Sequence record: DRR378314_2505
Direction: 5' to 3' (one strand)
Length of the DNA: 42,575 nt
In this document: in pieces, positions 6,295 through 42,575 of the stretch
How positions within the stretch are numbered: position 1 is the first letter of the stretch
How the letters are laid out: each line of letters starts with the position of its first letter
Notes under the pieces: model-generated
What the model was told of the DNA's origin: nothing
The model's input: the letters and a program-made list of their open reading frames with translations, nothing else
Databases searched by the model: none
Position numbers and translations under genes: made by a program

Positions 6295-6317
6295 CTCGGC
6301 CGGCGCCTCTCTCGTGA

Positions 6318-7109: not shown

Positions 7110-7123
7110 AAAACCGTCCCTGT

Positions 7124-10694: not shown

Positions 10695-10805
10695 AATCGG
10701 CCTCTTTTCCAAGTCAGAGGCCATCATGGCGGGGCGCAACAGCCGTGTAACGGGCCTTTCGTGCCAAACAAGGTGGACATTAGGTAACCCGGCGCGCCAC
10801 GGGGT

Positions 10806-11156: not shown

Positions 11157-11240
11157 GGTGCACCTCGCGTGTCGCGCGTTCGTTCATCACTGCTAGACTC
11201 AGAGCGGTTATAACAGGCGGAGACACATGGTGGCACCCCT

Positions 11241-22717: not shown

Positions 22718-23045
22718 CCTTCACATCCTTGTCGGACGTCCGCACCGACCGGGGCAGCAGCCGCAGGGTGTACTCCGTCTCCGCCACCCGGGACGCCAAC
22801 TCCGCTGGCGAGGCCTCGAACAACGGCACCCCGACAATCGCCGCCGCCTCGAACACGGCACCGATGGCGCACCCCATTTCCCCTCGCTCAATGCGCTGCA
22901 CCAGCCCGCGCGAGATCCCGGCGCGCTCGGCCAGGGCCTCGGCGGTGAGACCCTGCTCGATGCGAGCACGACGAATCAGCCGGCCCAGAAGCTGGGCGGC
23001 ATCGCGACTGTAGCGTGAATATGAGCGATTATCGGGCTTGGCCAT
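22707..23045 (-). CDS. hipB: HipB-like XRE HTH antitoxin
   Basis: LTAEALAERAGISRGLVQRIERG; overlaps the hipA start. Confidence 0.8.
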   Translation of the reverse strand: MAKPDNRSYSRYSRDAAQLLGRLIRRARIEQGLTAEALAERAGISRGLVQRIERGEMGCAIGAVFEAAAIVGVPLFEASPAELASRVAETEYTLRLLPRSVRTSDKDVKDDF

Positions 23046-24920: not shown

Positions 24921-27304
24921 CTCAAGGTGGTGACGAACTCGCCAATAACCCGCAGATCGCTGGCCGCGTCTTCGGTCAGCTCGATATCCCGGTAGCCGAA
25001 CAGGCGGCTCTCCGGCTTCAGCACGATGCGGGTGTGGTACCACTGGCCGTCGTCGTCCTCTGACTTCTCGCTGTGGTAGCGCTTTACGGTGTAGCGCCCA
25101 CCGGTGTCGGCGTCCTGGATGTCGCGATGGGATACCAGCACGATCTTGCCTTCACGGCTGCCGGCGGGCTTGGCGCGGAACAGGCACCAGGTGCCGCTGG
25201 GAATGCGCTGATTCATGGATTCGCCCACCACGCGGGTGACGAAATGGCCCGGCTCCGCCTTCAGCCAGTCCGGCCGCTGCATCCAGTCACAGTCTTCCAC
25301 CGCCTGCGGGTCGCTGAATTCGCCGGCGGCCACGGCCAGGTCATACACCGGCAGGGCGTTTTCGAACGGCACCACCTCCTGCGTATCCAGCAGCGGGTAC
25401 GGCAGGGCCTCGTAGTCCGCCGCCCGCATCACCGGGTTGGCGGAAGGCGTCTGTATCTGCTCCCGGAACCAGGCGTTGGTCTCCGGGTCGGTGCAGAACA
25501 CAAAGCAGCCTTTCATGCCCCGGGTCATCAGTGTGCGGTAGGTGTTCTTGATGATCTCGTCGGCTTCGCGCTTCGCCGTCTCCGGGTCCTCTTTATAGAG
25601 CTTCCGGATGCCGCGCACCGAACGGTCCATGGACGACCGCTTGCGGCCATCGGTCTGGATCTCGCCGTCGCGCACGATCAGGTCCGGGCCGATAATCACA
25701 CCCACGTAATCCAGTTCGAGACCCTGGATGGTGTGGATACAGCCGATCTGCTCCACCGAGTGTTCCGCCAGAGCCCACAGGCTGCCGTCCCGGGTCAGGT
25801 TCCACTGCGCGGCGAAATCATGCTCCGGCAGTTCGATATCCATGGCAACCGGGTCTTTCTTGCTCTTCCAGTCCCAGCAATAGCCGGCCACCATCCGTGC
25901 GCGGTTGTTGGCGTTGCGCGACACGATGGCCTGGCGCAGCGCCTGCGGCGAGTCCACCACTTGAATGTCGTAGTCCACGGACTCGAGGTCATCGTTGGCG
26001 GTATCGCGGATTTGCAGTAACTGATCGACGAACGCCAGATAACCGTCCGAGCCGCCGCAGCGGAACTGCGAGGCGAGCCCCAGCTCCGTAACCTCGGCGC
26101 CCAGACGTTCCGCCCAGCGCCGAATCTCCGCCCGCGAGCCCACGTCTTTCAGGGTGACGCGCTGCGCCTCGTCCACGAAGAACACCGACAGCCGGGCCGC
26201 CTGCATGATCTCCTTGATCTGGTGCTCGCCCTGGTTGCCGTAGAGGCCGCTTTTCTCATTCAGGCGGTGCGCCTCATCCACCAGCAACGCCCCGAAGCTG
26301 TCCGGCGCGGTATCCATAAACGACCCGGAGCCACGGAACATATTGCTGATGCGGCTCTTCTTGAACGAGCCGGTGAGCTGCGCCTCGTATACCGCCCGGG
26401 GCGCCGCGTTGCGTGAGACGTATTGGGCAGCCATATCGCGGCCGGTAAGGCGGGCCAGCAGGTTGATGGCCAGCACGGACTTTCCGGTGCCCGGGCCGCC
26501 CTCAACGATCAGCACCTGCCGCTTGCCCTGTTGCGCTCGGTGGGCCAGCTCCAGGGCGGTCTCGAACGCCACCTTCTGATCATCGATCATGACGAAGGCG
26601 TCGTTGCCCTGAAGCATGGTCAGCACCGCATCCGCAAGGCTGCGCGACGGGCGAATGCGACCATTCTCTATGCGGTAAAGCAGGTCCCGGTCATCGCCAT
26701 AGCGCACATGCTGCTTCAGAAAATCGGCCAGCCGCTCCACATCCCGGGAAATAAACACCGGCGCCTGGCTGGTGTGCGGCGCGTACACCGGATCGTTCAC
26801 CGCACTGCCGTCGTCCATATTGTGCAGGTAGGCGCAAGGCACCAGGCGAATAGACTCGGCGCGAACGGTTTCGTTGTAGTCTCTGATCAGGCTCGCGTAG
26901 GTCCACGCCTGATAAGACGGGTGGCTGGTCTCGCGCCAGCCGCCGCCCAGCGGCGTGCGGATAATGCCGTCCTTGTGCGACAACGGTTCGGCCTGCTGCC
27001 ACTGCTTCAGCTCGACGATGACAGCGGTCTCCTGCCGCTGTTCGTTGGCGCCACTGAGAATGAAGTCGATGCGCTTACTGGTCAGCGGGATGTGGTACTC
27101 CAGGGAAACGCCGGCGTCATCCGGAATCGCCTGATCCAGCATCAAGTTGGACATGAACTGCAGCGAGTGGCGCCAGGAATCCACCTCCTTGGCCGCCACC
27201 GAGCGTGACAGCCGACGCCGGAACTCGAGCAGAATCTTTTCATGAATGCGATTAAGGCGGACGTCTTCAATAAACGTCTTCTTCTTAGCGGTATAAACAA
27301 TCAT
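24917..27304 (-). CDS. Nuclease-like + DUF2075 (Schlafen-type SF1) helicase + C-terminal S24 peptidase fusion
   Basis: RIDFIL...IVELKQW (PD-(D/E)xK-like), GGPGTGKS, VDEAH, QFRC, HTIQGLE, YRTLMTRG; C-terminal VAAG, GESM, VKR. Confidence 0.85.
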   Translation of the reverse strand: MIVYTAKKKTFIEDVRLNRIHEKILLEFRRRLSRSVAAKEVDSWRHSLQFMSNLMLDQAIPDDAGVSLEYHIPLTSKRIDFILSGANEQRQETAVIVELKQWQQAEPLSHKDGIIRTPLGGGWRETSHPSYQAWTYASLIRDYNETVRAESIRLVPCAYLHNMDDGSAVNDPVYAPHTSQAPVFISRDVERLADFLKQHVRYGDDRDLLYRIENGRIRPSRSLADAVLTMLQGNDAFVMIDDQKVAFETALELAHRAQQGKRQVLIVEGGPGTGKSVLAINLLARLTGRDMAAQYVSRNAAPRAVYEAQLTGSFKKSRISNMFRGSGSFMDTAPDSFGALLVDEAHRLNEKSGLYGNQGEHQIKEIMQAARLSVFFVDEAQRVTLKDVGSRAEIRRWAERLGAEVTELGLASQFRCGGSDGYLAFVDQLLQIRDTANDDLESVDYDIQVVDSPQALRQAIVSRNANNRARMVAGYCWDWKSKKDPVAMDIELPEHDFAAQWNLTRDGSLWALAEHSVEQIGCIHTIQGLELDYVGVIIGPDLIVRDGEIQTDGRKRSSMDRSVRGIRKLYKEDPETAKREADEIIKNTYRTLMTRGMKGCFVFCTDPETNAWFREQIQTPSANPVMRAADYEALPYPLLDTQEVVPFENALPVYDLAVAAGEFSDPQAVEDCDWMQRPDWLKAEPGHFVTRVVGESMNQRIPSGTWCLFRAKPAGSREGKIVLVSHRDIQDADTGGRYTVKRYHSEKSEDDDGQWYHTRIVLKPESRLFGYRDIELTEDAASDLRVIGEFVTTLS

Positions 27305-27672
27305 GAACCGTCGTCGTCCTTGTTCTGATACGCCGTGTACTTGCGCGCCGAACCGCGTGCCTGATCGGCGGGATAACGGGCTTCGTTAATGGCCATCTTC
27401 TCTTCCACGGCTTTCGGGATATCCACGCCCAGCTTGTCCGCCAGTCGCAACAGGTAGATCTGCACATCCGCGATCTCATGGGCGGCCGCGCGATGCTGCT
27501 CCGGCGTCAGCTCGTAGGACTGCGCCTCCGTCAGCCACTGGAACAGGTCCAGCAACTCGGACACCTCGCCACCCAGCGCCATGGTCAAGTTCTTGGGCGA
27601 ATGGAACTGGTCCCAGTCGCGCGCCTCGGCGAAGGCGCGCGCTTTGTCGCTGAGGCGCTGGAAGTCGGACAT
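27301..27672 (-). CDS. MazG-like nucleotide pyrophosphohydrolase
   Basis: RDWDQFHSPKNL, EVSELLDLFQW, EIADV, KMAINEARYP; ATGA overlap with the helicase gene. Confidence 0.9.
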   Translation of the reverse strand: MSDFQRLSDKARAFAEARDWDQFHSPKNLTMALGGEVSELLDLFQWLTEAQSYELTPEQHRAAAHEIADVQIYLLRLADKLGVDIPKAVEEKMAINEARYPADQARGSARKYTAYQNKDDDGS

Positions 27673-27723
27673 GGTGGTTCCCCGTAACGTTAAAAGTTGG
27701 CTCAGCGCCCGCTGGCTCAAGCG

Positions 27724-28047
27724 CTAAGCGGCGTCCAACGGCGTAATCCGCGACACCTCATCCTTAGCGGATTGCGACGCGGCCCATAAATCCACCGCGC
27801 GCTGCGCGTTAAGCCAGAACTCCGGTGAATTGCCGAACAAACGACCGAGCCGCAGCGCCATCTCCGGGCTGACCGCGCGGCGCTCGCGCAACAGTTCATT
27901 CACCGACTGCCGCGAAACGCCCAAACGCTCAGCAAGCTGCGCCACCGTCAGCCCATAGTCCGGAATGAAGTCCTCTCTCAGCATTTCGCCGGGATGCGTT
28001 GGCTTACGCTGGATGCCGGCGGTATTGGAAATCGTCATGTTAACCAC
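27724..28047 (-). CDS. higA: HigA antitoxin
   Basis: PTHPGEMLREDF, HTH, SPEMALRLGRLFGNSPEFWLNAQ. Confidence 0.92.
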   Translation of the reverse strand: MVNMTISNTAGIQRKPTHPGEMLREDFIPDYGLTVAQLAERLGVSRQSVNELLRERRAVSPEMALRLGRLFGNSPEFWLNAQRAVDLWAASQSAKDEVSRITPLDAA

Positions 28048-28053
28048 CTCTCT

Positions 28054-28335
28054 TTAATGGTAATCGCAGACCTCAACGTCATACGCATCGCCATCCTCAA
28101 AACGAAAGCAGATACGCCACTGATCGTTAATCGAAATGGCGTGCTGACCTTGTCGGTTACCGGAAAGCGCATGCAGTTTGTTACCCGGGGGCACCCTCAG
28201 GTCATCCAGACACGTCGCCAAATCCACATACTCAAGCTTACGCGCTGCCCTTGAGGCCACATCGGGAGGAAACTTCTTTGCCTTGCCTTTGGCATAGAGC
28301 TCCTGGGAACGCTTGTCCGTAAACGTCTTGATCAT
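28054..28335 (-). CDS. higB: HigB (RelE-family) toxin
   Basis: LRVPPGNKLHALSGNRQGQHAISINDQWRICF...DYH. Confidence 0.92.
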   Translation of the reverse strand: MIKTFTDKRSQELYAKGKAKKFPPDVASRAARKLEYVDLATCLDDLRVPPGNKLHALSGNRQGQHAISINDQWRICFRFEDGDAYDVEVCDYH

Positions 28336-28342
28336 GCCCACA

Positions 28343-28371
28343 ACCGTATTCTGTCACGTGACACTTGTCAA
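28343..28371 (-). promoter_or_regulatory. higBA sigma70 promoter with palindromic operator
   Basis: TTGACA-17 bp-TACGGT; perfect palindrome TGTCACGTGACA (28352-28363) in the spacer; ATG 7 nt after the -10. Confidence 0.7.
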
Positions 28372-29522
28372 CCAAGCTCACGGGGATGCTCCGCGACCAA
28401 ACTCTCCCGCGAAATCTCCCCAACCGCCCTGGCCCCAGTCAACGTCATCGCCACCTTCATCTCGCTGGCGATCAGGTCCAGCAGGTTGGCCACGCCCTGC
28501 TCGCCGGCGGCGGCGAGAGCGTAGACGAAGGGGCGGCCGAGCAGCACGCCGTCGGCGCCCAGGGCGAGCATGCGCACCACGTCCAGGCCGGAGCGGACGC
28601 CGGAATCCGCCAGGATCGTCAGGTCGCCCTGCACGGCGTCGGCGATGGCCGGCAGGGCCCGGGCCGAGGAGAGCACGCCATCGAGCTGGCGCCCGCCGTG
28701 GTTGGAGACCACGATGCCGTCCGCGCCGAACCGCACCGCCTCGCGGGCGTCCTCCGGATCGAGAATGCCCTTGAGCACCATGGCGCCCTGCCAATACTCC
28801 CGAATCCATTCCAGATCCCGCCAGCCGATGGACGGATCGAAGTTCTCGCCCAGCCAGCCGATGTAATCCTCCAGCTGGATGCGGTGGCCCAGATAGGCCG
28901 ACACATTGCCCAGATCGTGGGGCCGCCCGCGCAGGCCCACGTCCCACGCCCAGCGCGGGTGCGTCACCGCCTGCAGCACCCGCCGCCAGGCCGCGAACGG
29001 CCCGGACATCCCCGAATGCCGATCGCGATAGCGCGCCCCCGGCACCGGCATATCCACCGTGAACACCAGGGTCCGCACCCCCGCCGCCCAGGCCCGCTCC
29101 AGCGCGTTTTTCATGAAACCTCGGTCGCGCAGCACATACAGCTGAAACCACATCGGCCGCATCATCGCCGGCTGCACCTCCTCGATGGGACACACCGACA
29201 CCGACGACAACGTAAACGGCACGCCCCGCGACGCCGCCGCCCGCGCCGCCTGCACCTCGCCCCGCCGCGCGTACATCCCGGTGAGCCCCACCGGCGCCAG
29301 CGCCACCGGCAGGCTCACATCCTCCCCGAACCACCGCGCCGACAGATCCACCTCCCCCACCTCCTTCAACACCCGCTGCCGCAACGCCAGAGCGCGCAGA
29401 TCCGCCACATTGCGCGCCAGGGTGTGCTCGTCGTACGCGCCCCCGTCGATGTAGTGGAACAGGAACGGCGGCAGGCGGCGTTGGGCGGCGAGGCGGTAAT
29501 CGTGGGTGGAGGAGATGATCAT
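28368..29522 (-). CDS. lldD: FMN-dependent L-lactate dehydrogenase
   Basis: [46 protein letters not shown]. Confidence 0.92.
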
Positions 29523-30102: not shown

Positions 30103-33100
30103 GTGTCGATTAATGAAACCGACATTCGGCAGTGGGCGGATCGTCATGAATGCCGTAGAAGTCTGCCAATACTAGTTCGTCGTTTAATCAGGGAGACAGC
30201 CGGGTCCCTATCGGCTTTTCGGTTCCCCGGGAATGATGCCGTCGACTTAAGCGGCCTTGACGGTCAAGTTGAGAATGAGATCGCGACGACCTGGGTGCCT
30301 CGCGGGCGAAGCGTGTGGGAAATGGGGAGTAACCACGATCCTCGGGCCAAGGCAGAAGGCGACTATAAAAAGCGAACCGCAGAAACGCCATTAGAAGTGC
30401 GTCAGGCCACCAGCTTCATATTCGTCACCCCCAGGCGGTGGAATACAAAGGATGAGTGGCTAGAAATGCACTGCCAAGAAGCCTCTTGGGCGTCTGTAAA
30501 AGCATACGACGCAATAGATCTAGAAACTTGGCTTGAAGAAGCACCAGTTACCACTCGATGGCTGGAAGAACTGATCGGGGTTGCCCATCCGGGCTTGATG
30601 ACGCCTCACGAATGGTGGAAACAATGGTCAACAGCTTCGAATCCGGCCATCTCCATGAAGCTAGTTTCAACACGAAGGCATAACGAACAGCAAACACTAT
30701 TATCACTTTTACGAGATGGCGAAGAATTTCTGCCAATACAAGCCGATGATAAGCAAGAGGCAGTGGCGTTTGTAATAGCATCATTGATCGAGGCAGATGC
30801 ACTTGATCTCTTAGACCGGAGCTTAGTATTAACGTCCAACGCTGCCGAAATCCAATCATCGCCAGCTGGCTCAATAATTATTTCTGACGTGGTGGAAGGC
30901 AATGAGCCAAATTTTGGTGACAGGCGAAAAATCACAATCATAAAAACCTATCCAAAAGGGCGCTCAGATGTACGGCAAGCCATCCAGCTCTCACACGTAC
31001 CTTCTGAGATCTTCCGTATCGAGCTGGAAGCCATGGGGCTAAGTCGGGACGAGGCAGCAAGCTGGGCTTTAAAGACTGGGCATTCCGTTCCAGTCCTGAG
31101 ACGACAGCTTTCCAAGGATCCTGACGTACGAACACCAACTTGGGCACGAAACCGCGCATCTGCCAAAATGCTGCTCCCATTTGCATTGTCTGGTTCTTGG
31201 GTCGAACGCGAGAACACTGGCGACGAAACAGTTCTAGAGTTGCTTGGGGAGCTAGGGGATGGAGAGGTGGAACGAATTCGTGATCAGCTTCTCGCTTTAA
31301 ATGACGCCCCAGTTGCTCGTTACGGAAACATAAACATCGTAGTTTCACAACTTGATGCTTTGTTTGCAGTAGGCCCTTTCATTGGGCTAGATGACCTTGA
31401 CCGTTTTTTTCAACTGGTACCTGAACTACTAGGAGATCGAGACCCAGTTCTCGACCTTCCACAAGACCAATGGTGGATGGCCAGCGTTCTCGGTAAGACT
31501 AGGGATTACTCCAACGCGTTACTCTCAGGCCTTAGCGATGCACTTTGTATCCTTTCCATTCACGGAAGGGAGATCTGTGGAAATAGACTCTCTGCTGATC
31601 TAGCGCGCCGTTCGGAAAAAGTAGTCCGCTCTCTAATGAAGAATAACGACGAGGACCGTTGGCTCTCCATCCGCGGCCATCTGAGAGAGCTCGCCGAGGC
31701 ATCGCCGGGTGCATTTCTCGACTGTCTCGAGGAGGAGCTTGGCAGGTCAGAGCCAACTATCCGAGCTATAATGGGGACCACCACTGGAGCGATTGGCGGG
31801 GAATGCCTCCGAACGCATTTACTGTGGGCACTTGAGTCGCTGGCCTGGCACGCGGAGTATTTCAAACGTGTGTTGGAGATTGTTTATAAACTTCGGGATA
31901 TTGAAACTGAAGATAACTGGACAAACTCTCCGAAATCCACGGCTAGAGCGCTTTTTCTCCCATGGTTACCCGCTACATCCGTTAGCGTAACTGAAAGGAT
32001 GGTGATTTTACGGGAACTATCGAAAATACATAGAAGGCATGCTATTGACGTTTGTATTTCTCTACTTCCAGGAGCAGGCCCCGATTTTGCGTCTAGAACA
32101 GCAAGGCCACGTTGGCGAGCACTAGAAATTGAGGTAACAGAGCCTACAAACGCGGACGTAAAGTATGCAGCTGAGGAAGCAAGTCACCTACTCCTAGACT
32201 TGGCCCCATTCGATAAAGAAGATCTCAAACAACTGATCGAGGTCACAACACTACTGCACCCAGACGATTTAAGCCGGCTTGTAAATGAAGTTGAGCGTTG
32301 GTCGGCCAAGTCTGATGATGAAGAAAAAGCCGAGTTAAGGCACGATCTTCGTCGACGAGATGTTATGCGTGCATACCAAGAAAATGAAAAGAACCAAGCA
32401 TTGGCTACTGCGATCCATCAGATGGAGGATTTTTTAGAGCCAGCGGATCCTAGCTTACGGCATCGATGGCTATTTGGTAGCCACCCTGTCGAATGGCGCG
32501 CCTTGGCCGAAGCTGAAATCGAAGGTAACTTGTCTTGGCAAGAAAGGGCTGCCCTATTGGAGGAGCGGAGGCAGGAAGCAATCTCAGAGGTTCAAGAATA
32601 CCTCGGGGAAGAGGCTATACTTCCATTTGCTCTCAGCACGCAGCAACCCGACCTAGTCGCGGAAACCCTAGTCCCGCATAACTCTCCAGCTACAACTGCA
32701 GGAAAATGGGCCAGCATAGCGTTTCAGGAGAAAGTTAATGAAAAATCAACTGCATTTCTTCGCCAGATCTTATGGAACACAAACCGAGAAAGCCTAATTG
32801 ACATGGGCAATTTACTTACTCATGAAGGACTACTCAGTCGGGCAGATAGCAGGGAGCGCTTTGCACAGCTCCTTCCTGGGTGTCGAGAGGGATGGGAGGC
32901 TGCTGAGTCTTTGGGAGACGACATAGCCTCATCATTTTGGCGTTCGGTCTCCATCCGTCTCTGGAATGATACCGAGCCACAAGCAGTGTTGTATGTAGTA
33001 GAAAAACTTCTTGAAGTCCAGCGCCCACGGTCAGCGCTTTTGGCTTTACAATTTCAACCCGACCGGCTTCCGCCCGAGCAATGGTCCCGCATCCTTCAAG

Positions 33101-33894
33101 CTGTCGCTCGCGGGGAAGAGCCGCATGCCCCCCTGCCCATTTCTTATCATCTTGACGAAATATTCATGCTGCTAGACAAGGCGCAGGGAATTTCAAATCA
33201 ACATATTGCTCACTTGGAGCTGCCTTTTATTCCTCTATTGTGCAACCATGGTCATCGCAACCATCGAAGAACTCTTGCTATCCACCATGAGCTATCACGC
33301 GATCCTGAGCTCTTCGTTCAACTCCTTTGCTGGCACTATAAGCGCAGAGACGGGGCGTTTGAGCCCGAGCAGAAGGAATTATCAGATGATAGACGTGAAT
33401 TTCTAGCAAGCCTAGCGCACCACACACTCAAGGGTTGGAAGGAGCTACCCGGCTGCCAAGCCGATGGGGAAATCAACGAGCAGGAATTTACTTCCTGGGC
33501 GGATGAAGCGTTAAGACGTGCGTCCAGCATGGACCGTAGAGAGGCTGGCGAAACCCATTTCGCCGAATTACTGGCACACTTTGCCCGTCAGCATCCATGG
33601 GAAGACTGGCTGCCTGACTGTGTGTTGCGCTTCTTGGATAGACAGGGCAATACCAGCCTCCGGGAGAAGTTCGAGATCGGTGTTCATAATGCTCGTGGAG
33701 CAACAATACGAGGGCCATACGATGGCGGTGAGCAAGAACGGAACCTAGCCGGCCACTATCGTGATCTTGCGGCACGATATGGAAACTCGTATCCCCGGGT
33801 GTCCGCGATGCTTATATCGATCGCAGAGAGTTACGAGCAGGACGCTCGTCACCATGATGAAAAGGCTGCAATTGGCGAGCGCTGGCACCCTTGA
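30103..33894 (+). CDS. 1263-aa protein, putative N-terminal restriction-endonuclease-like domain plus long helical region; candidate defence protein
   Basis: Uninterrupted ORF, lower GC than host genes; GLDG...WEMG...DYKKRT...FIFVTPR pattern; GTG start after a G-rich RBS. Confidence 0.7.
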   Translation: MSINETDIRQWADRHECRRSLPILVRRLIRETAGSLSAFRFPGNDAVDLSGLDGQVENEIATTWVPRGRSVWEMGSNHDPRAKAEGDYKKRTAETPLEVRQATSFIFVTPRRWNTKDEWLEMHCQEASWASVKAYDAIDLETWLEEAPVTTRWLEELIGVAHPGLMTPHEWWKQWSTASNPAISMKLVSTRRHNEQQTLLSLLRDGEEFLPIQADDKQEAVAFVIASLIEADALDLLDRSLVLTSNAAEIQSSPAGSIIISDVVEGNEPNFGDRRKITIIKTYPKGRSDVRQAIQLSHVPSEIFRIELEAMGLSRDEAASWALKTGHSVPVLRRQLSKDPDVRTPTWARNRASAKMLLPFALSGSWVERENTGDETVLELLGELGDGEVERIRDQLLALNDAPVARYGNINIVVSQLDALFAVGPFIGLDDLDRFFQLVPELLGDRDPVLDLPQDQWWMASVLGKTRDYSNALLSGLSDALCILSIHGREICGNRLSADLARRSEKVVRSLMKNNDEDRWLSIRGHLRELAEASPGAFLDCLEEELGRSEPTIRAIMGTTTGAIGGECLRTHLLWALESLAWHAEYFKRVLEIVYKLRDIETEDNWTNSPKSTARALFLPWLPATSVSVTERMVILRELSKIHRRHAIDVCISLLPGAGPDFASRTARPRWRALEIEVTEPTNADVKYAAEEASHLLLDLAPFDKEDLKQLIEVTTLLHPDDLSRLVNEVERWSAKSDDEEKAELRHDLRRRDVMRAYQENEKNQALATAIHQMEDFLEPADPSLRHRWLFGSHPVEWRALAEAEIEGNLSWQERAALLEERRQEAISEVQEYLGEEAILPFALSTQQPDLVAETLVPHNSPATTAGKWASIAFQEKVNEKSTAFLRQILWNTNRESLIDMGNLLTHEGLLSRADSRERFAQLLPGCREGWEAAESLGDDIASSFWRSVSIRLWNDTEPQAVLYVVEKLLEVQRPRSALLALQFQPDRLPPEQWSRILQAVARGEEPHAPLPISYHLDEIFMLLDKAQGISNQHIAHLELPFIPLLCNHGHRNHRRTLAIHHELSRDPELFVQLLCWHYKRRDGAFEPEQKELSDDRREFLASLAHHTLKGWKELPGCQADGEINEQEFTSWADEALRRASSMDRREAGETHFAELLAHFARQHPWEDWLPDCVLRFLDRQGNTSLREKFEIGVHNARGATIRGPYDGGEQERNLAGHYRDLAARYGNSYPRVSAMLISIAESYEQDARHHDEKAAIGERWHP

Positions 33895-34929: not shown

Positions 34930-34987
34930 GGCCTTTCATTCCTCCTACCCGTCAATACGCTCTTGTGAATGCCAGAGCGCCAACCCA

Positions 34988-35190
34988 AATATGCAATAAA
35001 TACGCCGGCGCCGTATTTTTCTTGTTTGATGTCCCCTGACAAAAAATAAGACCAGAAAAAGAAGCCGCTGACAAACGTCCTCTCCTGATATCTTTGCTAA
35101 TCTTCTCTCCTCAAATTAAAAGGCCGCCAACGCCCAGGCGTCAAAGGCCTCTTAAGTAAGCCGTTACTAATTAGCCAAACCAAATAGATC
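34988..35190. repeat. Diverged copy B of the guaA-downstream ~200-bp element
   Basis: Collinear blocks shared with 42339-42548: CGCCGGCG, TCCCCTGAC, AAAATAA, ACCAGAAAA, AGCCGCT, ACAAAC, CCTGATATCTT, AAAAGGCCGCC, TTAAGTAAGCC, TTACTA, AGATC. Confidence 0.85.
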
Positions 35191-35239
35191 CCAGGTCAGC
35201 CCCTATGCTGAGGGAATCCAGCTATTCCCCCCCGGCAAC

Positions 35240-35460
35240 GGCAACCCAGCAATCCGCCTATCCTTCTCCGACGGCCCCCCAGCGCCTGCAGCACCATCTC
35301 GGCAGCAATATGATCGGCGTGTTCCATCTCGCCGTCTTCCACGAGCAGCTTCATGGCGCCCGAGGTGGCGGCGATGACTATGCTCATTGCCATAACCTCG
35401 TGGGCGTAGCGGAAGTCGCCTTGCCAGCGGCCGGCGCGGGCATAGATCCGCAGGGCAGCG
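35240..35460 (-). pseudogene. Possible remnant of a TetR-family C-terminal domain
   Basis: Host-like GC; GDFRY...IVIAATSGAMKLLV...HIAAEMVLQALG looks like TetR C-terminal helices; no HTH or clear start; bounds approximate. Confidence 0.35.
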
Positions 35461-35550
35461 CCCAGCAGTTGTGGCCGACTGCACAGCTCAGAGGCGCCCA
35501 CGGGTGGGGCCGAGAATCATTCGGAGCGGCACTGGGGAATACGTACTCGC

Positions 35551-35847
35551 TTAATCCAGCAGCCTTTCCGGTGCATCCATGTACTCATGCAGCACACGAA
35601 CCACTAACACCTCCGCCTCGAGCACTCGGTAGAACACCGCGTGATGCTCAACCTGCAGTCGGCGATACCCGGGAAGAACATGGGCGTAGTCGGTCCCAAG
35701 CAAGGGGTGCTGAATCAGCGGCCTCATGCCCGCCTCCAGCTGATCAAGGTAGCCATCCGCCTGATCCGCACCCCACTCTTCGCAGGTATACACCCAGATG
35801 TCGATGAGGTCGGGTTCCGCCTTTGGCGTAAGGCTCAGCGTGCGCAC
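35551..35847 (-). CDS. parE: ParE (RelE/ParE) toxin
   Basis: DLIDIWVYT.EEWGADQADGY, GYRR, HAVFYR, VVRVLH. Confidence 0.9.
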   Translation of the reverse strand: MRTLSLTPKAEPDLIDIWVYTCEEWGADQADGYLDQLEAGMRPLIQHPLLGTDYAHVLPGYRRLQVEHHAVFYRVLEAEVLVVRVLHEYMDAPERLLD

Positions 35848-36101
35848 TACTCCGGCGCCTTCACCCGCTTACGGCCAGCCGCCTTGATCGCCGCCATATC
35901 GACTGGCTTGGCCTCGCCGCTTGCTTCACCCTCAACCAGGGCCTGCCTGAGCGTGGCAAGCCGTTCCTGGGCTTGCTGGTCCTGCCGGATGAGATGGCGG
36001 ATATACTCACTGTCGTTGCCGAACTGGCCGTCTTCGATCCGGCTTTTTACCCAGCCGTCCTGTTGTTCGGTGAGGGTGATGGTCTTCCGGTGCATGCTCA
36101 T
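35847..36101 (-). CDS. parD: ParD antitoxin (RHH)
   Basis: KTITLT, GQFGNDSEYIRHLIR, LRQALVEGEASG. Confidence 0.9.
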   Translation of the reverse strand: MSMHRKTITLTEQQDGWVKSRIEDGQFGNDSEYIRHLIRQDQQAQERLATLRQALVEGEASGEAKPVDMAAIKAAGRKRVKAPE

Positions 36102-36126
36102 AATGGGTACTCCTGAGCCCCAAACA

Positions 36127-36143
36127 GTATGACAATATCATAC
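36127..36143. promoter_or_regulatory. Probable parDE operator
   Basis: Inverted repeat GTATGA-N5-TCATAC about 25 bp upstream of parD. Confidence 0.55.
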
Positions 36144-36758
36144 CAAGCTTTTGCGCCGGATCAATTCCGTCTACCAACGGGCGGCAGCAGACACTGTGTT
36201 TGTTCAGGCACCCTCAAAAGCCTTTGAGCCCGTCATCATCGGTGACGGTCTCACGGCCTTTTGATCCTGCCTATGCGCAGCATTGATTGCGCATAGGATT
36301 GATCGTTGCGCATAGGCGTAAAAGCCTTTGGAATATTCCGTCTGGCAGGCTGTTGTCGGCCAGTGCATGAGTATCATCGGCGTCCGCATTTCGAGCGGAA
36401 AGGCGTCATAACGGCATCATCCATTGGCGGCAACGCACCCCTGGAGTGTGGGTAGAGCGCTTGTCGTAAAGAGGCGGAATTGCATTTTCGACCTCAAGTC
36501 CGTACCAAGAAGAATCAATGCGACGCGAATCGGAAAGAAGAGCAGCTTCATGGTGACCTGCTGTTGGTACTAATCCAGACCTGATCTGCTGGCATGCAAC
36601 AGTTTTGGAATGGAGCACACCTTGTGTAGCGGCATGCATTTTCCGTACTTCTCGATGGCTATCTTCTGGAGTTAGCTCGAAGTACCCCGTATGACTTCCA
36701 GCATCACATGCCCGCAAGTACCAAGTTTAAATATCGGCTGTTCAGTATTTATTATAAG

Positions 36759-36867
36759 GCATGACGCCTTGCCTACAGGCCGGATAGAGCAGAGTAAGCT
36801 TTTGATAGTTTGCGCAGCTAAACCACAATCTTGCGCGTAGCTGGTTCCGAGCACAGCAATTTTAAGT
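36759..36867 (-). repeat. Degenerate attC-like site 3
   Basis: Starts 3 nt after the stop: ACTTAAA...GCTGTGCTCGGA...internal hairpin TTGTGGTTT/AAACTATCAA...AAGGC-GTCATGC; both core triplets altered. Confidence 0.45.
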
Positions 36868-36870
36868 TCT

Positions 36871-37842
36871 CTAATCGCTATTCTTTCTAACGATTTCGGC
36901 TAACAAAGCATCTATTTGGGATATATAGTTTACTTGATTAAAATTTGGCAACGACTCTCTTTTTCGGATATATTGGTGTAATAGACCATCTGAAATTTTT
37001 CTACAGCCTTTCTCAAGATGATTGAACGCTTCTTTTAAAGATTTTCCAGGATAACTAGCGGAAACCTCGCCAAATGTTGAAAACCCTAGAGAAGGAGGAA
37101 CATGATCCAGAATCACCCTCAATAGAGCACCTATCGAAAAATAGTTTCCATTTTCGTAAGCCGAATTTATTTCTCTACATATTTGAACCAACCTAGAGAA
37201 ATCAAAGTTCACAGACTCGATACGTTCCAGGTCTTTTATCCGAGATTTGTCAATGTAACTAATAGTGGTTCTGGACTCTGAAGTTTCTTCTTTTCCTATA
37301 TTTCCAACGATAGAATCTGTCCAGATCATCCCGTCCTCAGGATATTCAGAAGGCTCCCTTATTCGGTGAATAGTATCTTTGAAGGCTTTAGATCTAATTA
37401 TCGATTCTGAAGGCTGAACCCAGGCGCCGTCTGCTTCGGTCAATGCTGTAGTATAGCTGCCAAATATGCTCGATTGGACCATGTAACCTAATGATTTAAC
37501 AACATCACCTTTTGGCAACTCAAGGCGTTTGGCCAAATCATCGACAGATATTTTATGCTCTGGATTCTCAATATAGAAGTTACGAAGAAATTGAAATATA
37601 AACTCACATCTTAAAAGCAATAAATTTGCTTCTTTAGATTCACTTTCTAACTCTAGGAGCGCAGGCAAGCATACGTAGTATTTTTGATCCCTCCTATCAA
37701 CATAACGCTTTGATTCCAATTCATCCAATAGATCTAACTTATCGTGATTTTTAGCTCTGTACTGGATCGCATTAACCCCTTTTGAGCCAGCCACGCTAGC
37801 TTCAAAAAGATCTACCAAAGATTTTTTTAATTGCTCTTGCAT
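36871..37842 (-). CDS. Hypothetical protein, wHTH-like N-terminus + HEPN/DUF4145-like C-terminus
   Basis: Very AT-rich; ISVDDLAKRLELPKGDVVKSL helix-turn-helix; EINSAY..GNY...ALLRVILD...RKISDGLLH. Confidence 0.65.
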   Translation of the reverse strand: MQEQLKKSLVDLFEASVAGSKGVNAIQYRAKNHDKLDLLDELESKRYVDRRDQKYYVCLPALLELESESKEANLLLLRCEFIFQFLRNFYIENPEHKISVDDLAKRLELPKGDVVKSLGYMVQSSIFGSYTTALTEADGAWVQPSESIIRSKAFKDTIHRIREPSEYPEDGMIWTDSIVGNIGKEETSESRTTISYIDKSRIKDLERIESVNFDFSRLVQICREINSAYENGNYFSIGALLRVILDHVPPSLGFSTFGEVSASYPGKSLKEAFNHLEKGCRKISDGLLHQYIRKRESLPNFNQVNYISQIDALLAEIVRKNSD

Positions 37843-37865
37843 TAATCAGTACTCGACCTAGTTTC

Positions 37866-37928
37866 GCCTGATGCTTGAACTCTGGCCGCCGGCCAACGTC
37901 CGGCGGCCGCTCGAACAACTTGTTGGAT
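37866..37928 (-). repeat. Degenerate attC-like site 2
   Basis: R'' ATCCAAC, 5-nt spacer, GTTCGAGC, 9-bp stem GGCCGCCGG/CCGGCGGCC, then TCAAGC-ATCAGGC (decayed R'). Confidence 0.55.
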
Positions 37929-37993
37929 AGCACCTCTCGGATCTTCGGAGGCAATAGGTTCGCGTTCACTCCAACTTACTCGCAGTTGAAGTA

Positions 37994-39850
37994 CTACGGC
38001 CGCATGGAAACCGGCAAGAAGCCATACCGTCCCGCAGAGCTCCTCGAGAAGTGGACGTGGTTGCACGACGCTTGCACATCGGCGGGAGGAGCCACGTTCT
38101 CGAAGACGACCACCTGGCCAAGCGCACTCGACGAGCAGAGGTTCCGATAGAAGGCATCCTTCACCGAGGTGGCGACCTCACCATCGTCGTCGACGTCGGC
38201 CTCCTTGTATGGGTTCAACGGAGTATCCAGGACGACGAAGCCAGGGTGGCCCTTGTTCGCCCCGAGTGCCTCTTGCATAAGTCCGATCACGTATCCGGCG
38301 CACATGACCGCACGCACGCCCTTGCCATGACTCGTCCGCCTCCGGCCATTTACAACTAGATCAGCGCTTTTCTCGTCAAATGCCACTGTAATGTCGTCAG
38401 CCACTCTCCATGCGATGAGGAGCGCCTTGATACGCGAGCATACGTCGGACATGGTGTTCGCTGTGAGCTTGATGAACTCCAACTTCTCCCCCTTGTCGCG
38501 CGTGGCATCCAGGTCGAGCATTTGGCTCTTCAGCGAGTCGATCTGGGCGCGCAGTTGCTCCACCCTGACGAACGCCCCGTAGCTCCCCTGGATCGCGCGG
38601 AGTTCATTGGCCGTGGCTCGGACTTTCGCGGCAAGGGCTCCCTCAATCTCTTCCGAGATCCCCTGGATCGCTGCATCGACCTCTCTAAGGCTCGCCGCCA
38701 AGACACGCTGCTCGGTGGACAGCTGGTCAGCTGCAACGCGAAGTTCCACTCGGAGTTGCTGGACCTTGGCCGCTTCCGCCAAAGCTGCCCGGAGCGTAGA
38801 CTCGGGCTCGTGCGCATCAGCATGCCGCTGATGTTCTGGTCTAGCGCCACAGTAGTCGCACGATCTGTCGCCGTACATCTGCAGGAGATAAGAAGACTCT
38901 CCCATGGCCTCAAGCCGAAGCAGATCAGACTCGTAGTGCGCGTCGAGCAACGAAGCACGTGCGAGCATCCCGTCGAGCTCACCTAACCGTCCGTTTTGCT
39001 CGCGTTGCTCGTTCACGAGCTCTCCTCGCCTCGACTCAGCGGCGCGCAGATCAGCCAAGGCCGTGCTCGACAGCTCGCCCAGCTCACACAGCTTGGCTTC
39101 AAGTTGGGACAGCACCTCTGGCGTCGCATCTATGTTCTCAAGGAGCTCGTCAAGCGCGGCTTGATCACGTTCGAGCAGATCCTTGATCGCCTCCTTCCTT
39201 CCGGCCAACCGGCCCGCGGATGTCTTCGGATCTTCTGGCTGCACGATCCCGGAGTCATCAACGCCCGTCAGCAACATCCGAATCGTACTTGCGGCGGCCG
39301 TGTTGCCAGTGTTCTGGGAACCGTAGAGGGGAGAGCGCTTCGCAATGATTCGCCCTTCATCGACGAGCAGGGCCTTGGATAGGACCCTGAAGCTGATCTT
39401 CTGAGTCTTCCCGCTGTCGTTCTTGCGGACTCGCCTGCCATCAAGGCCACACAGGCCAAGCAAGAAGCCAGAGACGGACTCCTTGGCGTTGGTGGTCTCA
39501 CCCAGTACATTCCACTCTTCATCGGCTTCGAGTGCATCATCAATCCGCCCGCGAAAGAGTCCGATCTTCCCACCAACGAGCGCACGCTTCAGGGTGTAGA
39601 ACTGGCCGTCCGCCGTTTGGATACAGAGATAGGCGACATCGTACAGTCGCGCTTGCGGGATCTCCTCGGGAGGCGTGCCAGCCCCCATCACGAAGTCGAT
39701 ACAGCTCAGCGCGTACGACTTTCCTGTGTCCGACGCCCCATCAATGACGTTGAGCCCCGACGCGAAAACGAGACTTCCGGGCACCTGACCAGGGCCACAG
39801 AGACGAAGCTCCCGAAGCTCGAACCCGCGTCGAGCGCTCCCGTTCGTCAT
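37994..39850 (-). CDS. SMC/Rad50-like ABC ATPase of ABC-3C/Lamassu system (LmuB-like)
   Basis: GLNVIDGASDTGKS Walker A, coiled coils with central CDYC hook, HGKG signature, VVLDTP Walker B. Confidence 0.85.
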   Translation of the reverse strand: MTNGSARRGFELRELRLCGPGQVPGSLVFASGLNVIDGASDTGKSYALSCIDFVMGAGTPPEEIPQARLYDVAYLCIQTADGQFYTLKRALVGGKIGLFRGRIDDALEADEEWNVLGETTNAKESVSGFLLGLCGLDGRRVRKNDSGKTQKISFRVLSKALLVDEGRIIAKRSPLYGSQNTGNTAAASTIRMLLTGVDDSGIVQPEDPKTSAGRLAGRKEAIKDLLERDQAALDELLENIDATPEVLSQLEAKLCELGELSSTALADLRAAESRRGELVNEQREQNGRLGELDGMLARASLLDAHYESDLLRLEAMGESSYLLQMYGDRSCDYCGARPEHQRHADAHEPESTLRAALAEAAKVQQLRVELRVAADQLSTEQRVLAASLREVDAAIQGISEEIEGALAAKVRATANELRAIQGSYGAFVRVEQLRAQIDSLKSQMLDLDATRDKGEKLEFIKLTANTMSDVCSRIKALLIAWRVADDITVAFDEKSADLVVNGRRRTSHGKGVRAVMCAGYVIGLMQEALGANKGHPGFVVLDTPLNPYKEADVDDDGEVATSVKDAFYRNLCSSSALGQVVVFENVAPPADVQASCNHVHFSRSSAGRYGFLPVSMRP

Positions 39851-40347
39851 GGCGTCCTCCCCGCCCCACGATACTCGGCGAACTGCCCACCCCATTGGTC
39901 GAGCTCGGTACTGACGTATCGGGTGATCTCACTGGTCTCCAGCTGCCCGAAGCTCACCGCGATCCAGCTGGCGCGGTTCCGCAGGGCTTCGACATACCTG
40001 CTGCGCAGCGTGTCCAGGAAGCAGCCGGCCCGATCCGTCGCGCCGTAACTGAAACCATTCGCGTCCACCGTCACTGAGACAAGACCACGCCTGGCGTACA
40101 AAGCGAGGCCAGGTTCCAGCACGGCACGCCGCACGAGAACCTCCGCTCCGCGTTGTGGCACAGCAGGATGGAGGCTCTCGGGACCTCCGTCCACGTCGGC
40201 CGAGTGGACCAGCAGGTAGTCGAGCAGAACGAGCCGCTGAAGATCGTGGTGGTGACGGTCAAGCTCGACGAGGACACACAGCGAGCGCAGCCCAAGCTCG
40301 ACTGGCGAGTTAAACACCCACGATGTTGTCGCGTCCGGCGTACCCAT
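39847..40347 (-). CDS. ABC-3C middle component (LmuC-like)
   Basis: FNSPVELGLR...LQRLVLLDYLLVHSAD...SLHP; translational coupling on both sides (TGATG, ATGA). Confidence 0.8.
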   Translation of the reverse strand: MGTPDATTSWVFNSPVELGLRSLCVLVELDRHHHDLQRLVLLDYLLVHSADVDGGPESLHPAVPQRGAEVLVRRAVLEPGLALYARRGLVSVTVDANGFSYGATDRAGCFLDTLRSRYVEALRNRASWIAVSFGQLETSEITRYVSTELDQWGGQFAEYRGAGRTP

Positions 40348-41420
40348 CACTGAACCCACTTGAGTCGAGCGTTGTCGGCGAGCTGGTGGCAGATGCCAGC
40401 CTTGTCTTTGACCCCGAGCACCTGTCGCAGGGCGTTGTTCGTCGGGTCAAGCTGCTGCGCTACTCCCGTCGCGGCCTTAACCCGTTGAAACCCATCGGCG
40501 TGGCTAATGTCCTCCACGGTGTCGATGACTGCATCGAAGAACTCCTCCTGAAGATCTTCAAATTGCCCAGGGGGAAGGGTGTCGCGGGAGAAATTACGAA
40601 GTGATTCCGCATGAAAGAATCGCTCGCGGCTCCGCAGCAAATGCCGATGGAGAGCCTCGTGCGCGGCCAAGCTCGCGACGCTCAGGGCCACGCCGGTGTG
40701 ATCGGAGTACGCCTCGAGGAGTCGACCGATGTATAGGCTCTCGAACTTTTCCTCGTCGATGTGCGGGACTTTGGCTGGCGGGCGAGGCGGTAGGCCGCCT
40801 GGAAATCGAGCGGCATGCCAGCGCGTCAACGCATGTTGCTCGATGATATCCATCGGCGGGACGTAGCTGACGATGCTGAAGTCGAAGCTCTCGACGAAGT
40901 TCAGGAGCTCGCCGGTCAGCGGAACTTTCTTCGTGGAGGTGATGTGCTCCTCGCACTTTCTCGCCCAGTCCTTGATGAGCCGCGCGCGGAGCTCCTCCGG
41001 CTCCTTGAAAAGCAGCGACAGACTGTTCCCCGCCCCCTGGGGAGCCACGAAATAGTACTCGGTTGGGGCCGAAAACGCCTTCTCGTAAACGTAGTAGCAG
41101 AGCTTCCCCAGCTCGAGGACAACCTGGTTCGGCTGCAGCGGGTCCTTATAGTGCTTGCACTGGTAGTTGTGCCACTCATCGTCGGAGACAAATGCCACAA
41201 CGTCGCGGCCGAGGTCGCCCGCTCCGCCACAGCGCTCAACTCGTTGGTACCTGCTCTTCAGGCTGTGGGCCCATTCCAGAGCGAAGTCCTCCCACTGGCC
41301 AGGGGAAAAAATGCGCAAGAGGTCGATGGCGGGCACAATCGTGCTACTCGCGGGCGTTGGCACCACGGTGTCTACTGTGGGCTCCTTCAGCGGCTGCGTC
41401 GTTGCCTTCAAAACGCTCAT
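40347..41420 (-). CDS. Mrr-like nuclease effector with ABC-3C C-terminal domain (LmuA-like)
   Basis: WEDF...GGAGDLGRDV...YQCKHY nuclease motif; C-terminal RERFFHAESL...GICHQLAD...LKW. Confidence 0.82.
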   Translation of the reverse strand: MSVLKATTQPLKEPTVDTVVPTPASSTIVPAIDLLRIFSPGQWEDFALEWAHSLKSRYQRVERCGGAGDLGRDVVAFVSDDEWHNYQCKHYKDPLQPNQVVLELGKLCYYVYEKAFSAPTEYYFVAPQGAGNSLSLLFKEPEELRARLIKDWARKCEEHITSTKKVPLTGELLNFVESFDFSIVSYVPPMDIIEQHALTRWHAARFPGGLPPRPPAKVPHIDEEKFESLYIGRLLEAYSDHTGVALSVASLAAHEALHRHLLRSRERFFHAESLRNFSRDTLPPGQFEDLQEEFFDAVIDTVEDISHADGFQRVKAATGVAQQLDPTNNALRQVLGVKDKAGICHQLADNARLKWVQ

Positions 41421-41456
41421 AATCGGAGTCCTCGCTCTTTCCGCCCACGCTCGGCT

Positions 41457-41534
41457 GTCCAACGCAGAGCGCACCGGTGGCCTTTGCAGAGCGAAGCGGC
41501 GTAATGGACATCCGTATGACGCGAACTGTCAGAC
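41457..41534 (-). repeat. attC-like site 1 (78 bp), AAC changed to GAC
   Basis: GTCTGAC-N5-GCG(T)CATA-CGG(A)TGTCC...GGCCACCG-GTGCGC-N5-GTTGGAC: R''/L''/L'/R' geometry with two extrahelical bases, 2 nt after a stop codon. Confidence 0.75.
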
Positions 41535-41536
41535 AT

Positions 41537-42295
41537 TTACACCCCGACTCGATTCCTTGTGGCAGCTGAAAACCCCAAATTGGTGAGATAAATCGGAAAC
41601 TCTGATTTGATAGCTTCGTGGCACCTATTCACTAAAAATTCAACATCTTCAACAGACTTCTTGGCAGACGTTTCACGTATTAGAAGAGGTGATATTTTTG
41701 GCCTATCACAGTTGTGAATACAGTCATGTCTACGCTGAAAAATCATATCGTATCGTTCTTTGACTTTATCCAATGCATCTTTTCGAGCCTTACCTTTCTG
41801 AGAGGGATTTAACTTTCGATAGTCTGTCGCGGCAATGCCAAACATTCTCTGTTTCGATTCACGGTGGGTAATCCATGGCTCAATAGAATCGGCTACCAGT
41901 AATTTTCGGCCTCTCCTAAAAAAATGGTTGAAAAGCTGCTGTATTTTTCCAAGCGAGAGCACATTTTCTTCTTCTATGAGCTCTCTAGCTGCCATTCGCC
42001 ATCGCCACCCACCATTCGCCTGGCGAAGCAAAGCCGTTACCGGAAGTTTTAAATTATTTAACCTGTCTGGCATTTCTATGCCAGGTTCAATTTCCTTTGC
42101 TTGAATGGCCTTGGCCACCAAATCTGCATACGCGTCGGAAAAATAAGCATCACACGCACCAACCCCCATCATCCAACTAGCACGGAGAATATCATCTTTG
42201 ACCATGCCTTCAGCTTGCAACTCAGCATGACCAAGTAGACCTCGAGCACGGGCAATATCTTCGGTAAAATGGCTCATTGCGGTGTCAAGAAGCAC
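41537..42295 (-). CDS. HEPN-like putative RNase
   Basis: DILRASWMMGVGACDAYFSD N-terminal helix and RHDCIH (Rx4H); GTG start after GGAAGGAG; AT-rich. Confidence 0.7.
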   Translation of the reverse strand: MLLDTAMSHFTEDIARARGLLGHAELQAEGMVKDDILRASWMMGVGACDAYFSDAYADLVAKAIQAKEIEPGIEMPDRLNNLKLPVTALLRQANGGWRWRMAARELIEEENVLSLGKIQQLFNHFFRRGRKLLVADSIEPWITHRESKQRMFGIAATDYRKLNPSQKGKARKDALDKVKERYDMIFQRRHDCIHNCDRPKISPLLIRETSAKKSVEDVEFLVNRCHEAIKSEFPIYLTNLGFSAATRNRVGV

Positions 42296-42310
42296 TTGCT
42301 CTCCTTCCCT

Positions 42311-42327
42311 GTCTAACAAATTTTAGG
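42311..42327 (-). other. attI-like / cassette 5' core site
   Basis: CCTAAAA-TTT-GTTAGAC directly before the RBS; resembles class 1 attI CCTAAAACAAAGTTRRRY, one base shorter. Confidence 0.5.
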
Positions 42328-42338
42328 ACGCCGGCTCG

Positions 42339-42548
42339 AATATCCAATGAACCCGCCGGCGTCACATCCCTTTTCTTCATTTCCCCTGACGCAAAATAAA
42401 ACCAGAAAACGCAGCCGCTTACAAACTCTACCGCAAGCAGTCCCCTGATATCTTGACCAACCCGCGTCCCAAAAACGCAAAAAGGCCGCCGACGCTCCCG
42501 CGCCGGCGGCCTTTTAAGTAAGCCCTTACTACCAGCCTAAATCAGATC
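42339..42548. repeat. Copy A of the ~200-bp element abutting the guaA stop
   Basis: Collinear with 34988-35190; similarity ends at the guaA stop codon. Confidence 0.85.
42480..42515 (-). terminator. guaA terminator (bidirectional)
   Basis: AAAAGGCCGCCG...CGGCGGCCTTTT. Confidence 0.8.
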
Positions 42549-42575
42549 ATTCCCACTCAATCGTAGCCGGCGGCT
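42547..42575 (-). CDS. guaA: GMP synthase, 3' end only
   Basis: Translates PPATIEWE*, the conserved GuaA C-terminus. Confidence 0.92.

Follow-up and report, generated by a model that had tools for sequence, protein, structure and literature searches.

A type II Lamassu operon, probably acquired as an integron cassette and left stranded in a defense island that lacks an integrase

The sequence analyzed here, which we call the window, is the whole of a 42,575-nucleotide (nt) stretch of DNA from sequence record DRR378314_2505. Towards its right end, three minus-strand genes, lmuA, lmuC, and lmuB, form a conserved unit and constitute a complete type II Lamassu system (LmuACB, or ABC-3C). We conclude that this is a real type II Lamassu system that probably arrived as an integron cassette and now sits stranded in a defense island lacking an integrase. 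An initial annotation had described the operon as a complete system packaged in a single gene cassette of ~3.6 kb, bounded by GTTGGAC and the complementary ATCCAAC. The copy in the window is not a complete mobile cassette, and the system itself is an ordinary member of the Lamassu-Mrr group; it is the packaging that is of interest.

All three proteins give full-length matches to PADLOC profiles (LmuA, PDLC03852, 8.8e-114; LmuC, 1.9e-48; LmuB, PDLC03863, 2.4e-156, spanning residues 25-629). In Pfam, LmuA matches ABC-3C CTD6 (PF20282, 1.5e-36) and LmuC matches the ABC-3C Middle Component 2 (MC2; PF20288, 2.5e-45, 154 bits against a cut-off of 26.9), and these profile matches bear out the earlier assignment of a complete Lamassu/ABC-3C system. 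A protein search with LmuA gave 1,349 proteins at E ≤ 0.001 among 6,616 candidates. Among the matches listed, the closest homologues are mostly 357 residues long and cover 100% of the query, which supports ATG 41420 as the start of lmuA. One scan of species-representative genomes with an LmuA alignment yielded 80 loci, to which the numbers L001 and onwards refer below, and at these loci tblastn finds the partner genes lmuC in 76 of 80 and lmuB in 77 of 80. LmuB has the predicted length of 618 residues and the hook ascribed to it: its CxxC motif, C331-D-Y-C334, lies mid-length, with both cysteines present in 98% of 64 aligned homologues, in which the Walker A motif (G38-x4-G43-K44) and D542-x-P-L are conserved as well. 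By sequence, the protein gives a weak N-terminal match of 45 residues in the PDB (9hqu_A).

The description of the LmuA head as an Mrr-like nuclease stands in part. Residues D69, D73, Q87, and K89, which form a D...QxK motif, are invariant in a 39-sequence alignment, and an AlphaFold (AF2) model with a mean predicted local distance difference test score of 89.6 has as its best structural matches the solved LmuA chains 9hr5 (E 2e-4) and 9nxx, followed by the FokI cleavage domain and Cap4 nucleases (E ~0.07). The Pfam Mrr_cat match, on the other hand, stays below threshold (E 0.032, 14.8 bits against a cut-off of 21), and a search of PDB sequences with LmuA found no match. An Mrr-like PD-(D/E)xK nuclease is thus a reasonable but not proven reading of this domain, and on these predictions a working Lamassu-Mrr system in the host may be considered plausible.

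The three genes are co-directional and arranged head to tail, with overlaps between the stop codon of lmuA and the start codon of lmuC (TGATG) and between the stop codon of lmuC and the start codon of lmuB (ATGA), in keeping with the translational coupling noted earlier. Both boundary 7-mers are present, GTTGGAC upstream, with a gap of 36 nt to the lmuA start codon, and ATCCAAC downstream (Table 1). The operon was also correctly described as richer in GC than its neighbors: the GC fraction is 0.609 for the cassette (37866-41462), compared with 0.443 for the upstream gene p260 (41537-42319) and 0.377 for the downstream gene p323 (36871-37842); that of the chromosomal backbone (1-29500) is 0.646. 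GTTRRRY, the degenerate form of the upstream 7-mer, occurs 51 times in the window against 57 times expected from shuffled sequences, which is the level of chance. The pair of 7-mers taken alone is accordingly no more than expected by chance, and its meaning comes only from comparison with other loci and from covariance models.

Seven of the 80 loci encode LmuA at 87-94% identity. When the window is compared with Halomonas fontilapidosi (L001) by blastn, homology covers 37922-41465 at 92.3% identity, and with Marinobacterium stanieri (L007) it covers 37903-41465 at 88.6%; in both cases it ends at the 7-mers, where the initial annotation had placed the boundaries. In a Wenzhouxiangella metagenome-assembled genome (MAG; L005), whose contig ends inside lmuB, homology extends up to 41470. 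The upstream breakpoint, GCGTTGG(A/G)C, is common to the window and these three loci, and the DNA beyond it is unrelated among the four. On the downstream side, the window, L001, and L007 share a conserved 65-nt trailer that runs up to an (A/G)YCCAAC box. The same cassette, at 82-92% DNA identity, is found in the host of the window, Halomonas, Marinobacterium, Wenzhouxiangella, and a Myxococcota MAG, that is, in hosts from two Oceanospirillales families, Chromatiales, and Myxococcota. Neither megablast of the operon nor blastn of the L001 attC site against plasmids gave a match. Because p260, p323, p262, p1263, ParD, and ParE occur in none of the 80 loci, we do not regard these neighboring proteins as part of the Lamassu unit.

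Distant Lamassu loci carry textbook integron attC sites, composed of an R'' box (RYYYAAC), a 5-nt spacer, an L'' box of the GYTGCA.CGGAC type, an L' box, and an R' box (GTTRRRY). Two such sites of equal length (L073:11447-11518 and L069:7237-7308) served as the seed of a covariance model, with a structure drawn from the two sites that has 23 pairs and three unpaired bases within the L stem; the model was enlarged twice with Infernal from its own matches at the loci, giving versions R1, R2, and R3, and the window was never part of the training. The model was grown in this manner because a MAFFT alignment of 13 attC sites had misaligned 3' halves and was unusable. Hand-written scanners, which combined R''/R' motifs with forced folding or L-box pairing, were dropped as too permissive or as missing known sites, and an nhmmer profile from three attC sites recovered its own seeds only.

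Searches of both strands of the window with filters off returned a single strong match, which lies immediately upstream of the Lamassu operon at 41534-41457 and scores 25.0 bits with R1 (E 1.9e-4), 34.7 bits with R2 (E 5.2e-7), and 33.7 bits with R3 (E 1e-7). It has the full length of the model, is on the coding strand, and ends with GTTGGAC, and its L stem, when the alignment is read by eye, shares its three unpaired positions with the seeds. The Lamassu cassette begins at the TT of this R' box (41462). In an alignment of 13 sites, which is fitted to the model and so favors the structure, 92.3% of the cells pair and 17 of the 23 pairs are changed on both sides; none of 500 shuffles reaches the observed values, and slid controls are 30-42% paired. 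A second, weaker match is found at 11300-11348 of the plus strand (~22 bits, E 4e-4 to 2e-3), inside an open reading frame (ORF) of 71% GC. Its loop is a single nucleotide, and we take it as a probable false positive, although it could be a lone degenerate site. Rfam gave nothing at the gathering score in the window and two chance-level matches at E ≤ 1, and a scan of the window for tRNA genes found none. Since no tyrosine recombinase is present among the scanned ORFs of the window or in the flanks of the attC-bearing loci, the identification of attC rests on architecture and not on a linked IntI.

At the downstream end of the operon, the cassette retains only part of a site of its own. Following the R'' box ATCCAAC, the spacer AAGTT and GTTCGAGCGG align with the attC carried by this cassette in L007, which R3 recognizes (19.3 bits, E 0.0013), and divergence sets in at 37903. 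This R''/L'' half ranks 3 among 85,104 positions when scored with a 5'-half weight matrix. What is left is R'', the spacer, and the opening 10 nt of L'', with no R'. The sequence then continues into a perfect 9-bp GC hairpin (folding z -3.3) and ATCAGGC, after which GAAACTA stands where an R' box would be expected. We infer that the site is a truncated or chimeric attC, and the truncation may have come about through deletion or through recombination between two attC sites. The unit opens with bases that form an inverted repeat with its 3' box (GTTGGACAGC against GCTATCCAAC), which matches at 9 of 10 positions in the window and at 10 of 11 in L001, and the upstream R' is complementary to the cassette's own R'' at 6 of 7 positions in the window and at 7 of 7 in L001, L073, and L009. 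An inverted repeat of this kind is predicted by the circular form of an integron cassette.

Clusters of attC sites and single attC sites that lack an integron integrase are known as CALIN and SALIN, respectively, and arrangements that look like these occur around Lamassu elsewhere. Applied to 1.13 Mb of loci, R3 gave 25 matches at E ≤ 1, and the 22 of these at E ≤ 0.1 are without exception on the strand of the Lamassu genes (eight in L009, five in L073, three in L079, two each in L001 and L069, and one each in L005 and L068); the other three, with E > 0.1, belong to L021 and L022 (minus strand) and to L058. In 7 of the 80 loci, one or more attC sites adjoin Lamassu, and with filters off L007 shows two extra, weaker matches. 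Three loci have attC on both sides of Lamassu, namely L073 (7851-7898 and 11447-11518), L009 (7745-7855 and 11461-11524), and L079 (7785-7857, E 0.055, and 11454-11517), although the genes of L079 are matched in several frames and may be broken. These distant bracketed versions come from one Pseudomonas genome and from Gemmatimonas and Vicinamibacterales MAGs. The Lamassu cassette has its own 3' attC in L073, L009, L079, L069, and L068, and weakly in L007. In L001 that site is missing, and Lamassu and a DUF2971 gene together make up a single 4.46-kb unit between two attC sites. The attC array of L073 abuts valS. Overall, the attC-bearing loci look like integrase-less attC clusters, or their integrases lie beyond the 8-kb flanks.

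Several further features of these loci were observed. The unit in L001 lies within 7866-12422; L009 has eight attC matches in 11.5 kb (163-11524), with an IS110-family transposase inside the array; and in L005 (349-7964), P2-like baseplate and tail genes precede attC and Lamassu. More distant Lamassu operons, in L014, L015, L025, and L028, are flanked by an inverted repeat of another kind (GGTGAAGGTG / CACCTTCACC), which is not attC-like and whose distances from the start and stop codons are similar.

We consider arrival as a cassette followed by stranding to be the probable history of the operon in the window. Its 5' boundary coincides with the canonical G|TTGGAC crossover at which the attC of p260 ends, its 3' end carries the matching R'' (ATCCAAC), and its own attC would have been truncated or exchanged past nucleotide 10 of L'', leaving the operon as a fixed part of a mosaic defense island. 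The earlier claim of an integron cassette is upheld by the 5' attC, by homology that ends at both 7-mers, and by the attC-bracketed homologues, and it falls short in that the cassette's own 3' attC is undetected, the scanned ORFs hold no integrase, and there is a single supported attC. A number of observations weigh against this history. The 3' site gives no covariance match even in a search restricted to 291 nt, and nothing like L' or R' is present past the hairpin; neither a tyrosine recombinase nor an integron integrase was found among the scanned ORFs of the 42.5-kb window, nor any integrase in the 8-kb flanks of the attC-bearing loci. The covariance models are home-made and their E-values rough, and the match at 11300-11348 shows that the noise floor is not far below. 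Minimum free energy folding of the upstream site does not differ significantly from shuffles (z -1.1 and -1.9), and its halves rank 62 and 469 with half-site weight matrices, which have low power because they are built from 13 attC sites. In L002, L003, L004, and L006 (81-85% nucleotide identity) the coding region alone is common with the window, and the surroundings there are ordinary defense islands, with the L004 copy following BREX brxL and the L002 copy lying in a restriction-modification island. Finally, a scan of 37700-42575 for sigma-70-like consensus sites gave none against 1.8 expected.

An alternative reading is an ordinary defense-island operon with no integron history, in which the 7-mers and the palindrome are coincidental or are terminator or untranslated-region elements: GTTRRRY is at chance level, no IntI is found in the scanned ORFs, four close homologues carry the operon without these ends, and the 3' hairpin could be terminator-like. 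We regard this as highly improbable, given that a covariance match with E 1e-7 ends exactly at the 7-mer, that homology breaks at the same base in four unrelated contexts, that homologues are bracketed by attC, and that each of the four cassettes examined (window, L001, L073, and L009) has complementary R' and R'' boxes. It is also unlikely that the operon is a still-mobile cassette of a functional integron or a CALIN, excised and reinserted by an integrase outside the window. The upstream attC is indeed well formed, CALIN cassettes can be mobilized in trans, and a DNA identity of 82-92% across Oceanospirillales, Chromatiales, and a Myxococcota MAG implies recent transfer; however, without L' and R' the cassette's own attC offers no 3' partner for precise excision, the 216 bp between the stop codon of the upstream gene (42547) and GTTAGAC (42317) leave no room for intI and attI, and the 42.5 kb contain one supported attC. 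A lesser chance than for the preferred history, though an appreciable one, attaches to the proposal that the cassettes, rather than inserting one at a time, came as part of a larger segment of 7.1 kb (35194-42328) that was taken up through recombination at a direct repeat of ~215 bp. The two copies of this repeat (34978-35193 and 42329-42555) are 72-84% identical and bracket a patchwork that includes Lamassu, the segment is a GC mosaic of a TetR-C fragment, parDE, p323, Lamassu, and p260, and no canonical junction follows the Lamassu attC remnant. Against it, the repeat has diverged and the scanned ORFs of the segment encode no integrase or other recombinase; moreover, capture of this kind is compatible with arrival as a cassette and does not exclude it.

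As to expression, the initial annotation had pointed to a promoter upstream of the cassette. A strong terminator (42515-42480) follows the right-edge gene, and both repeat copies keep hexamers (TTGTAA-17-TTTTAT and TTGTCA-17-TCTTAT, noted by eye) that fail the rule of the promoter scan. Transcription would come from upstream or from an internal promoter that the scan does not recognize. The mode of action can be predicted by analogy with published Lamassu structures. In the accessible part of one such study (PMC12663957), LmuA is held by LmuB and LmuC, is released with ATP, and tetramerizes, leading to abortive infection, and Mrr is listed among the LmuA effector heads. By the same scheme, LmuB and LmuC in the window would keep a single LmuA inactive, the complex would respond to free DNA ends or to intermediates of phage or plasmid replication, LmuA released in an ATP-dependent manner would oligomerize into an active nuclease, and degradation of DNA would abort the infection.

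Table 1. Coordinates of the Lamassu operon, its putative cassette ends, and neighboring features in the window.
Feature	Position	Strand	Description
lmuA	40347..41420	-	357-residue effector: N-terminal PD-(D/E)xK (Mrr-like, not proven) nuclease domain and C-terminal ABC-3C CTD6
lmuC	39847..40347	-	Middle component MC2; 166 residues from ATG 40347; alternative GTG start 40359
lmuB	37994..39850	-	618-residue SMC/Rad50-like ABC ATPase with coiled coil and CxxC hook
Leader, R' core to lmuA ATG	41421..41456	-	36 nt; ribosome-binding site GAGGA 41433-41429
3' untranslated stretch	37929..37993	-	65 nt, part of the cassette; kept in L001 and L007 down to the R'' box
attC of upstream p260 cassette	41457..41534	-	R'' GTCTGAC 41534-41528, 5-nt spacer, L'' GCGTCATACGGAT, loop, L' ACCGGTGCGC, spacer TCTGC, R' GTTGGAC 41463-41457
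Remaining 5' part of own attC	37909..37928	-	R'' ATCCAAC 37928-37922, spacer AAGTT, start of L'' GTTCGAGC
Non-canonical 3' part	37866..37908	-	GC hairpin GGCCGCCGG / CCGGCGGCC 37908-37884, then GTTCAAGC-ATCAGGC 37880-37866
p260, apparent upstream neighbor cassette	41537..42319	-	After GTTAGAC 42317-42311; ends with attC 41534-41457
parD/parE toxin-antitoxin pair	35551-36101		Pfam 4.7e-13 and 1.9e-19; 1.8 kb from Lamassu
101-residue ORF	35196-35501		TetR-family C-terminal part (Pfam TetR_C_40, E 0.067)

The surroundings of the operon are themselves composite, in that the DNA from 29.6 to 42.5 kb is a GC mosaic between lldD (28368-29522, NCBIfam 3e-220) and the 3' end of the right-edge gene, which we take to be that of GMP synthase from its C-terminal ...PPATIEWE. 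The right copy of the direct repeat starts in the last codons of this gene and includes its terminator, and the copies cease to be similar at a GC hairpin that lies ~12 nt ahead of GTTAGAC. The upstream neighbor p260 looks like a small cassette of its own, and the TTAGAC at its 5' end is complementary to its own R'' (GTCTGAC) at 5 of 6 positions. A protein-atlas lead (HEPN_RiboL-PSP / MAE_28990, score 0.97) suggests a possible HEPN-family protein, which may be a small abortive-infection nuclease; Pfam and PADLOC gave no match for p260. Downstream of Lamassu come p323, to which no family is assigned, ~770 nt without a convincing gene, parDE, and the TetR-like ORF, which is probably a gene fragment left by rearrangement. 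Genes of the parDE type are common in integron arrays; no attC was detected beside this pair, and a promoter-like TTGATC-16-TATGAT is seen by eye upstream of it.

Further leftwards, a 1,263-residue ORF (30103-33894, 51% GC) with a weak PADLOC match to PD-Lambda-4_A (1.2e-5) and no Pfam family is a candidate large defense protein. Left of lldD, a second defense-like gene cluster (24917-28341) comprises a Schlafen-group-3-type helicase fused to an S24 peptidase (1.3e-106), a MazG-like protein, and a helix-turn-helix protein adjoining a HigB-like toxin. A HipA-like kinase ORF (weak, 6e-13) and an adjacent HTH_3 protein (21467-23045) are possibly a hipBA-type pair. The window also carries a chromosomal subclass B1 metallo-beta-lactamase gene (7124-7882; NCBIfam NF033088, 264 bits against a cut-off of 200), for which the VIM model is the closest, with a score far below the VIM cut-off.

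For the host genome, the message is a modest one: a Lamassu-Mrr system has become fixed in a defense island beside a HEPN-like gene and parDE. The wider proposal, which we put forward tentatively and hold to be somewhat less than an even chance, is that type II Lamassu circulates among distant bacteria as a full-size, three-gene integron cassette of ~3.6 kb. If that were true, integrons would not be confined to streamlined defense systems of one or two genes, and integrase-less clusters of attachment sites with cassettes of ~4 kb or larger would be an overlooked vehicle for large defense systems. Clusters of this kind may be under-counted: the attC sites of L001, for example, are 4.46 kb apart, a spacing that exceeds the distance at which IntegronFinder clusters attC sites. 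In their lack of an intI within reach, the window, L001, L073, and L009 resemble the CALIN and SALIN described above, with attC sites and cassettes; the window differs from these in holding one supported attC and a half site only.

The type II Lamassu systems of Vibrio cholerae (DdmABC, equivalent to LmuACB) and Salmonella enterica (LmuACB; PDB 9hr5, 9hqx, 9nxx, and 9ny5) likewise consist of three genes, which encode an effector with an ABC-3C domain, a small middle component, and an SMC/Rad50-like ATPase. Their effector head is of the Cap4 type, whereas the one in the window appears to be an Mrr-like PD-(D/E)xK domain, with 9-13% identity in fold alignments, and the genomic vehicle in the window is probably an integron cassette. 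Integrons have recently been recognized as stores of anti-phage systems, and the novel aspect here is the packaging of three genes; our searches of the literature on integrons with Lamassu, ABC-3C, or three-gene cassettes, preprint supplementary tables and journal versions excepted, turned up no three-gene type II Lamassu cassette. A close precedent is brc128, a Lamassu-related system that is likewise in an integron cassette. According to the accessible text of the preprint, it is a two-ORF, Lamassu type 1-like cassette of a mobile integron, and its B protein is said to be without Walker B (Kieffer et al., bioRxiv 10.1101/2024.07.02.601719). The unit described here is, in contrast, a three-gene type II system of 3.6 kb associated with chromosomal, integrase-less attC clusters. 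In sedentary chromosomal integrons, the accessible text of a survey reports 783 defense systems in cassettes that are smaller than elsewhere, with a number of components that "never exceeds 2", and ascribes this compactness to constraints that size places on how cassettes form and recombine (Darracq et al., bioRxiv 10.1101/2024.07.02.601686). As far as that text describes them, these are promoterless anti-phage systems between attC sites, often beside toxin-antitoxin cassettes, and the operon of the window is similar in having a parDE pair 1.8 kb away. It differs in having three components that are not shortened, LmuA having the same 357 residues as its non-cassette homologues. A three-component, unshortened Lamassu present as a cassette here and in at least seven other genomes would raise that size limit, and it would demonstrate that site-specific recombination is able to move complex SMC-based immunity.

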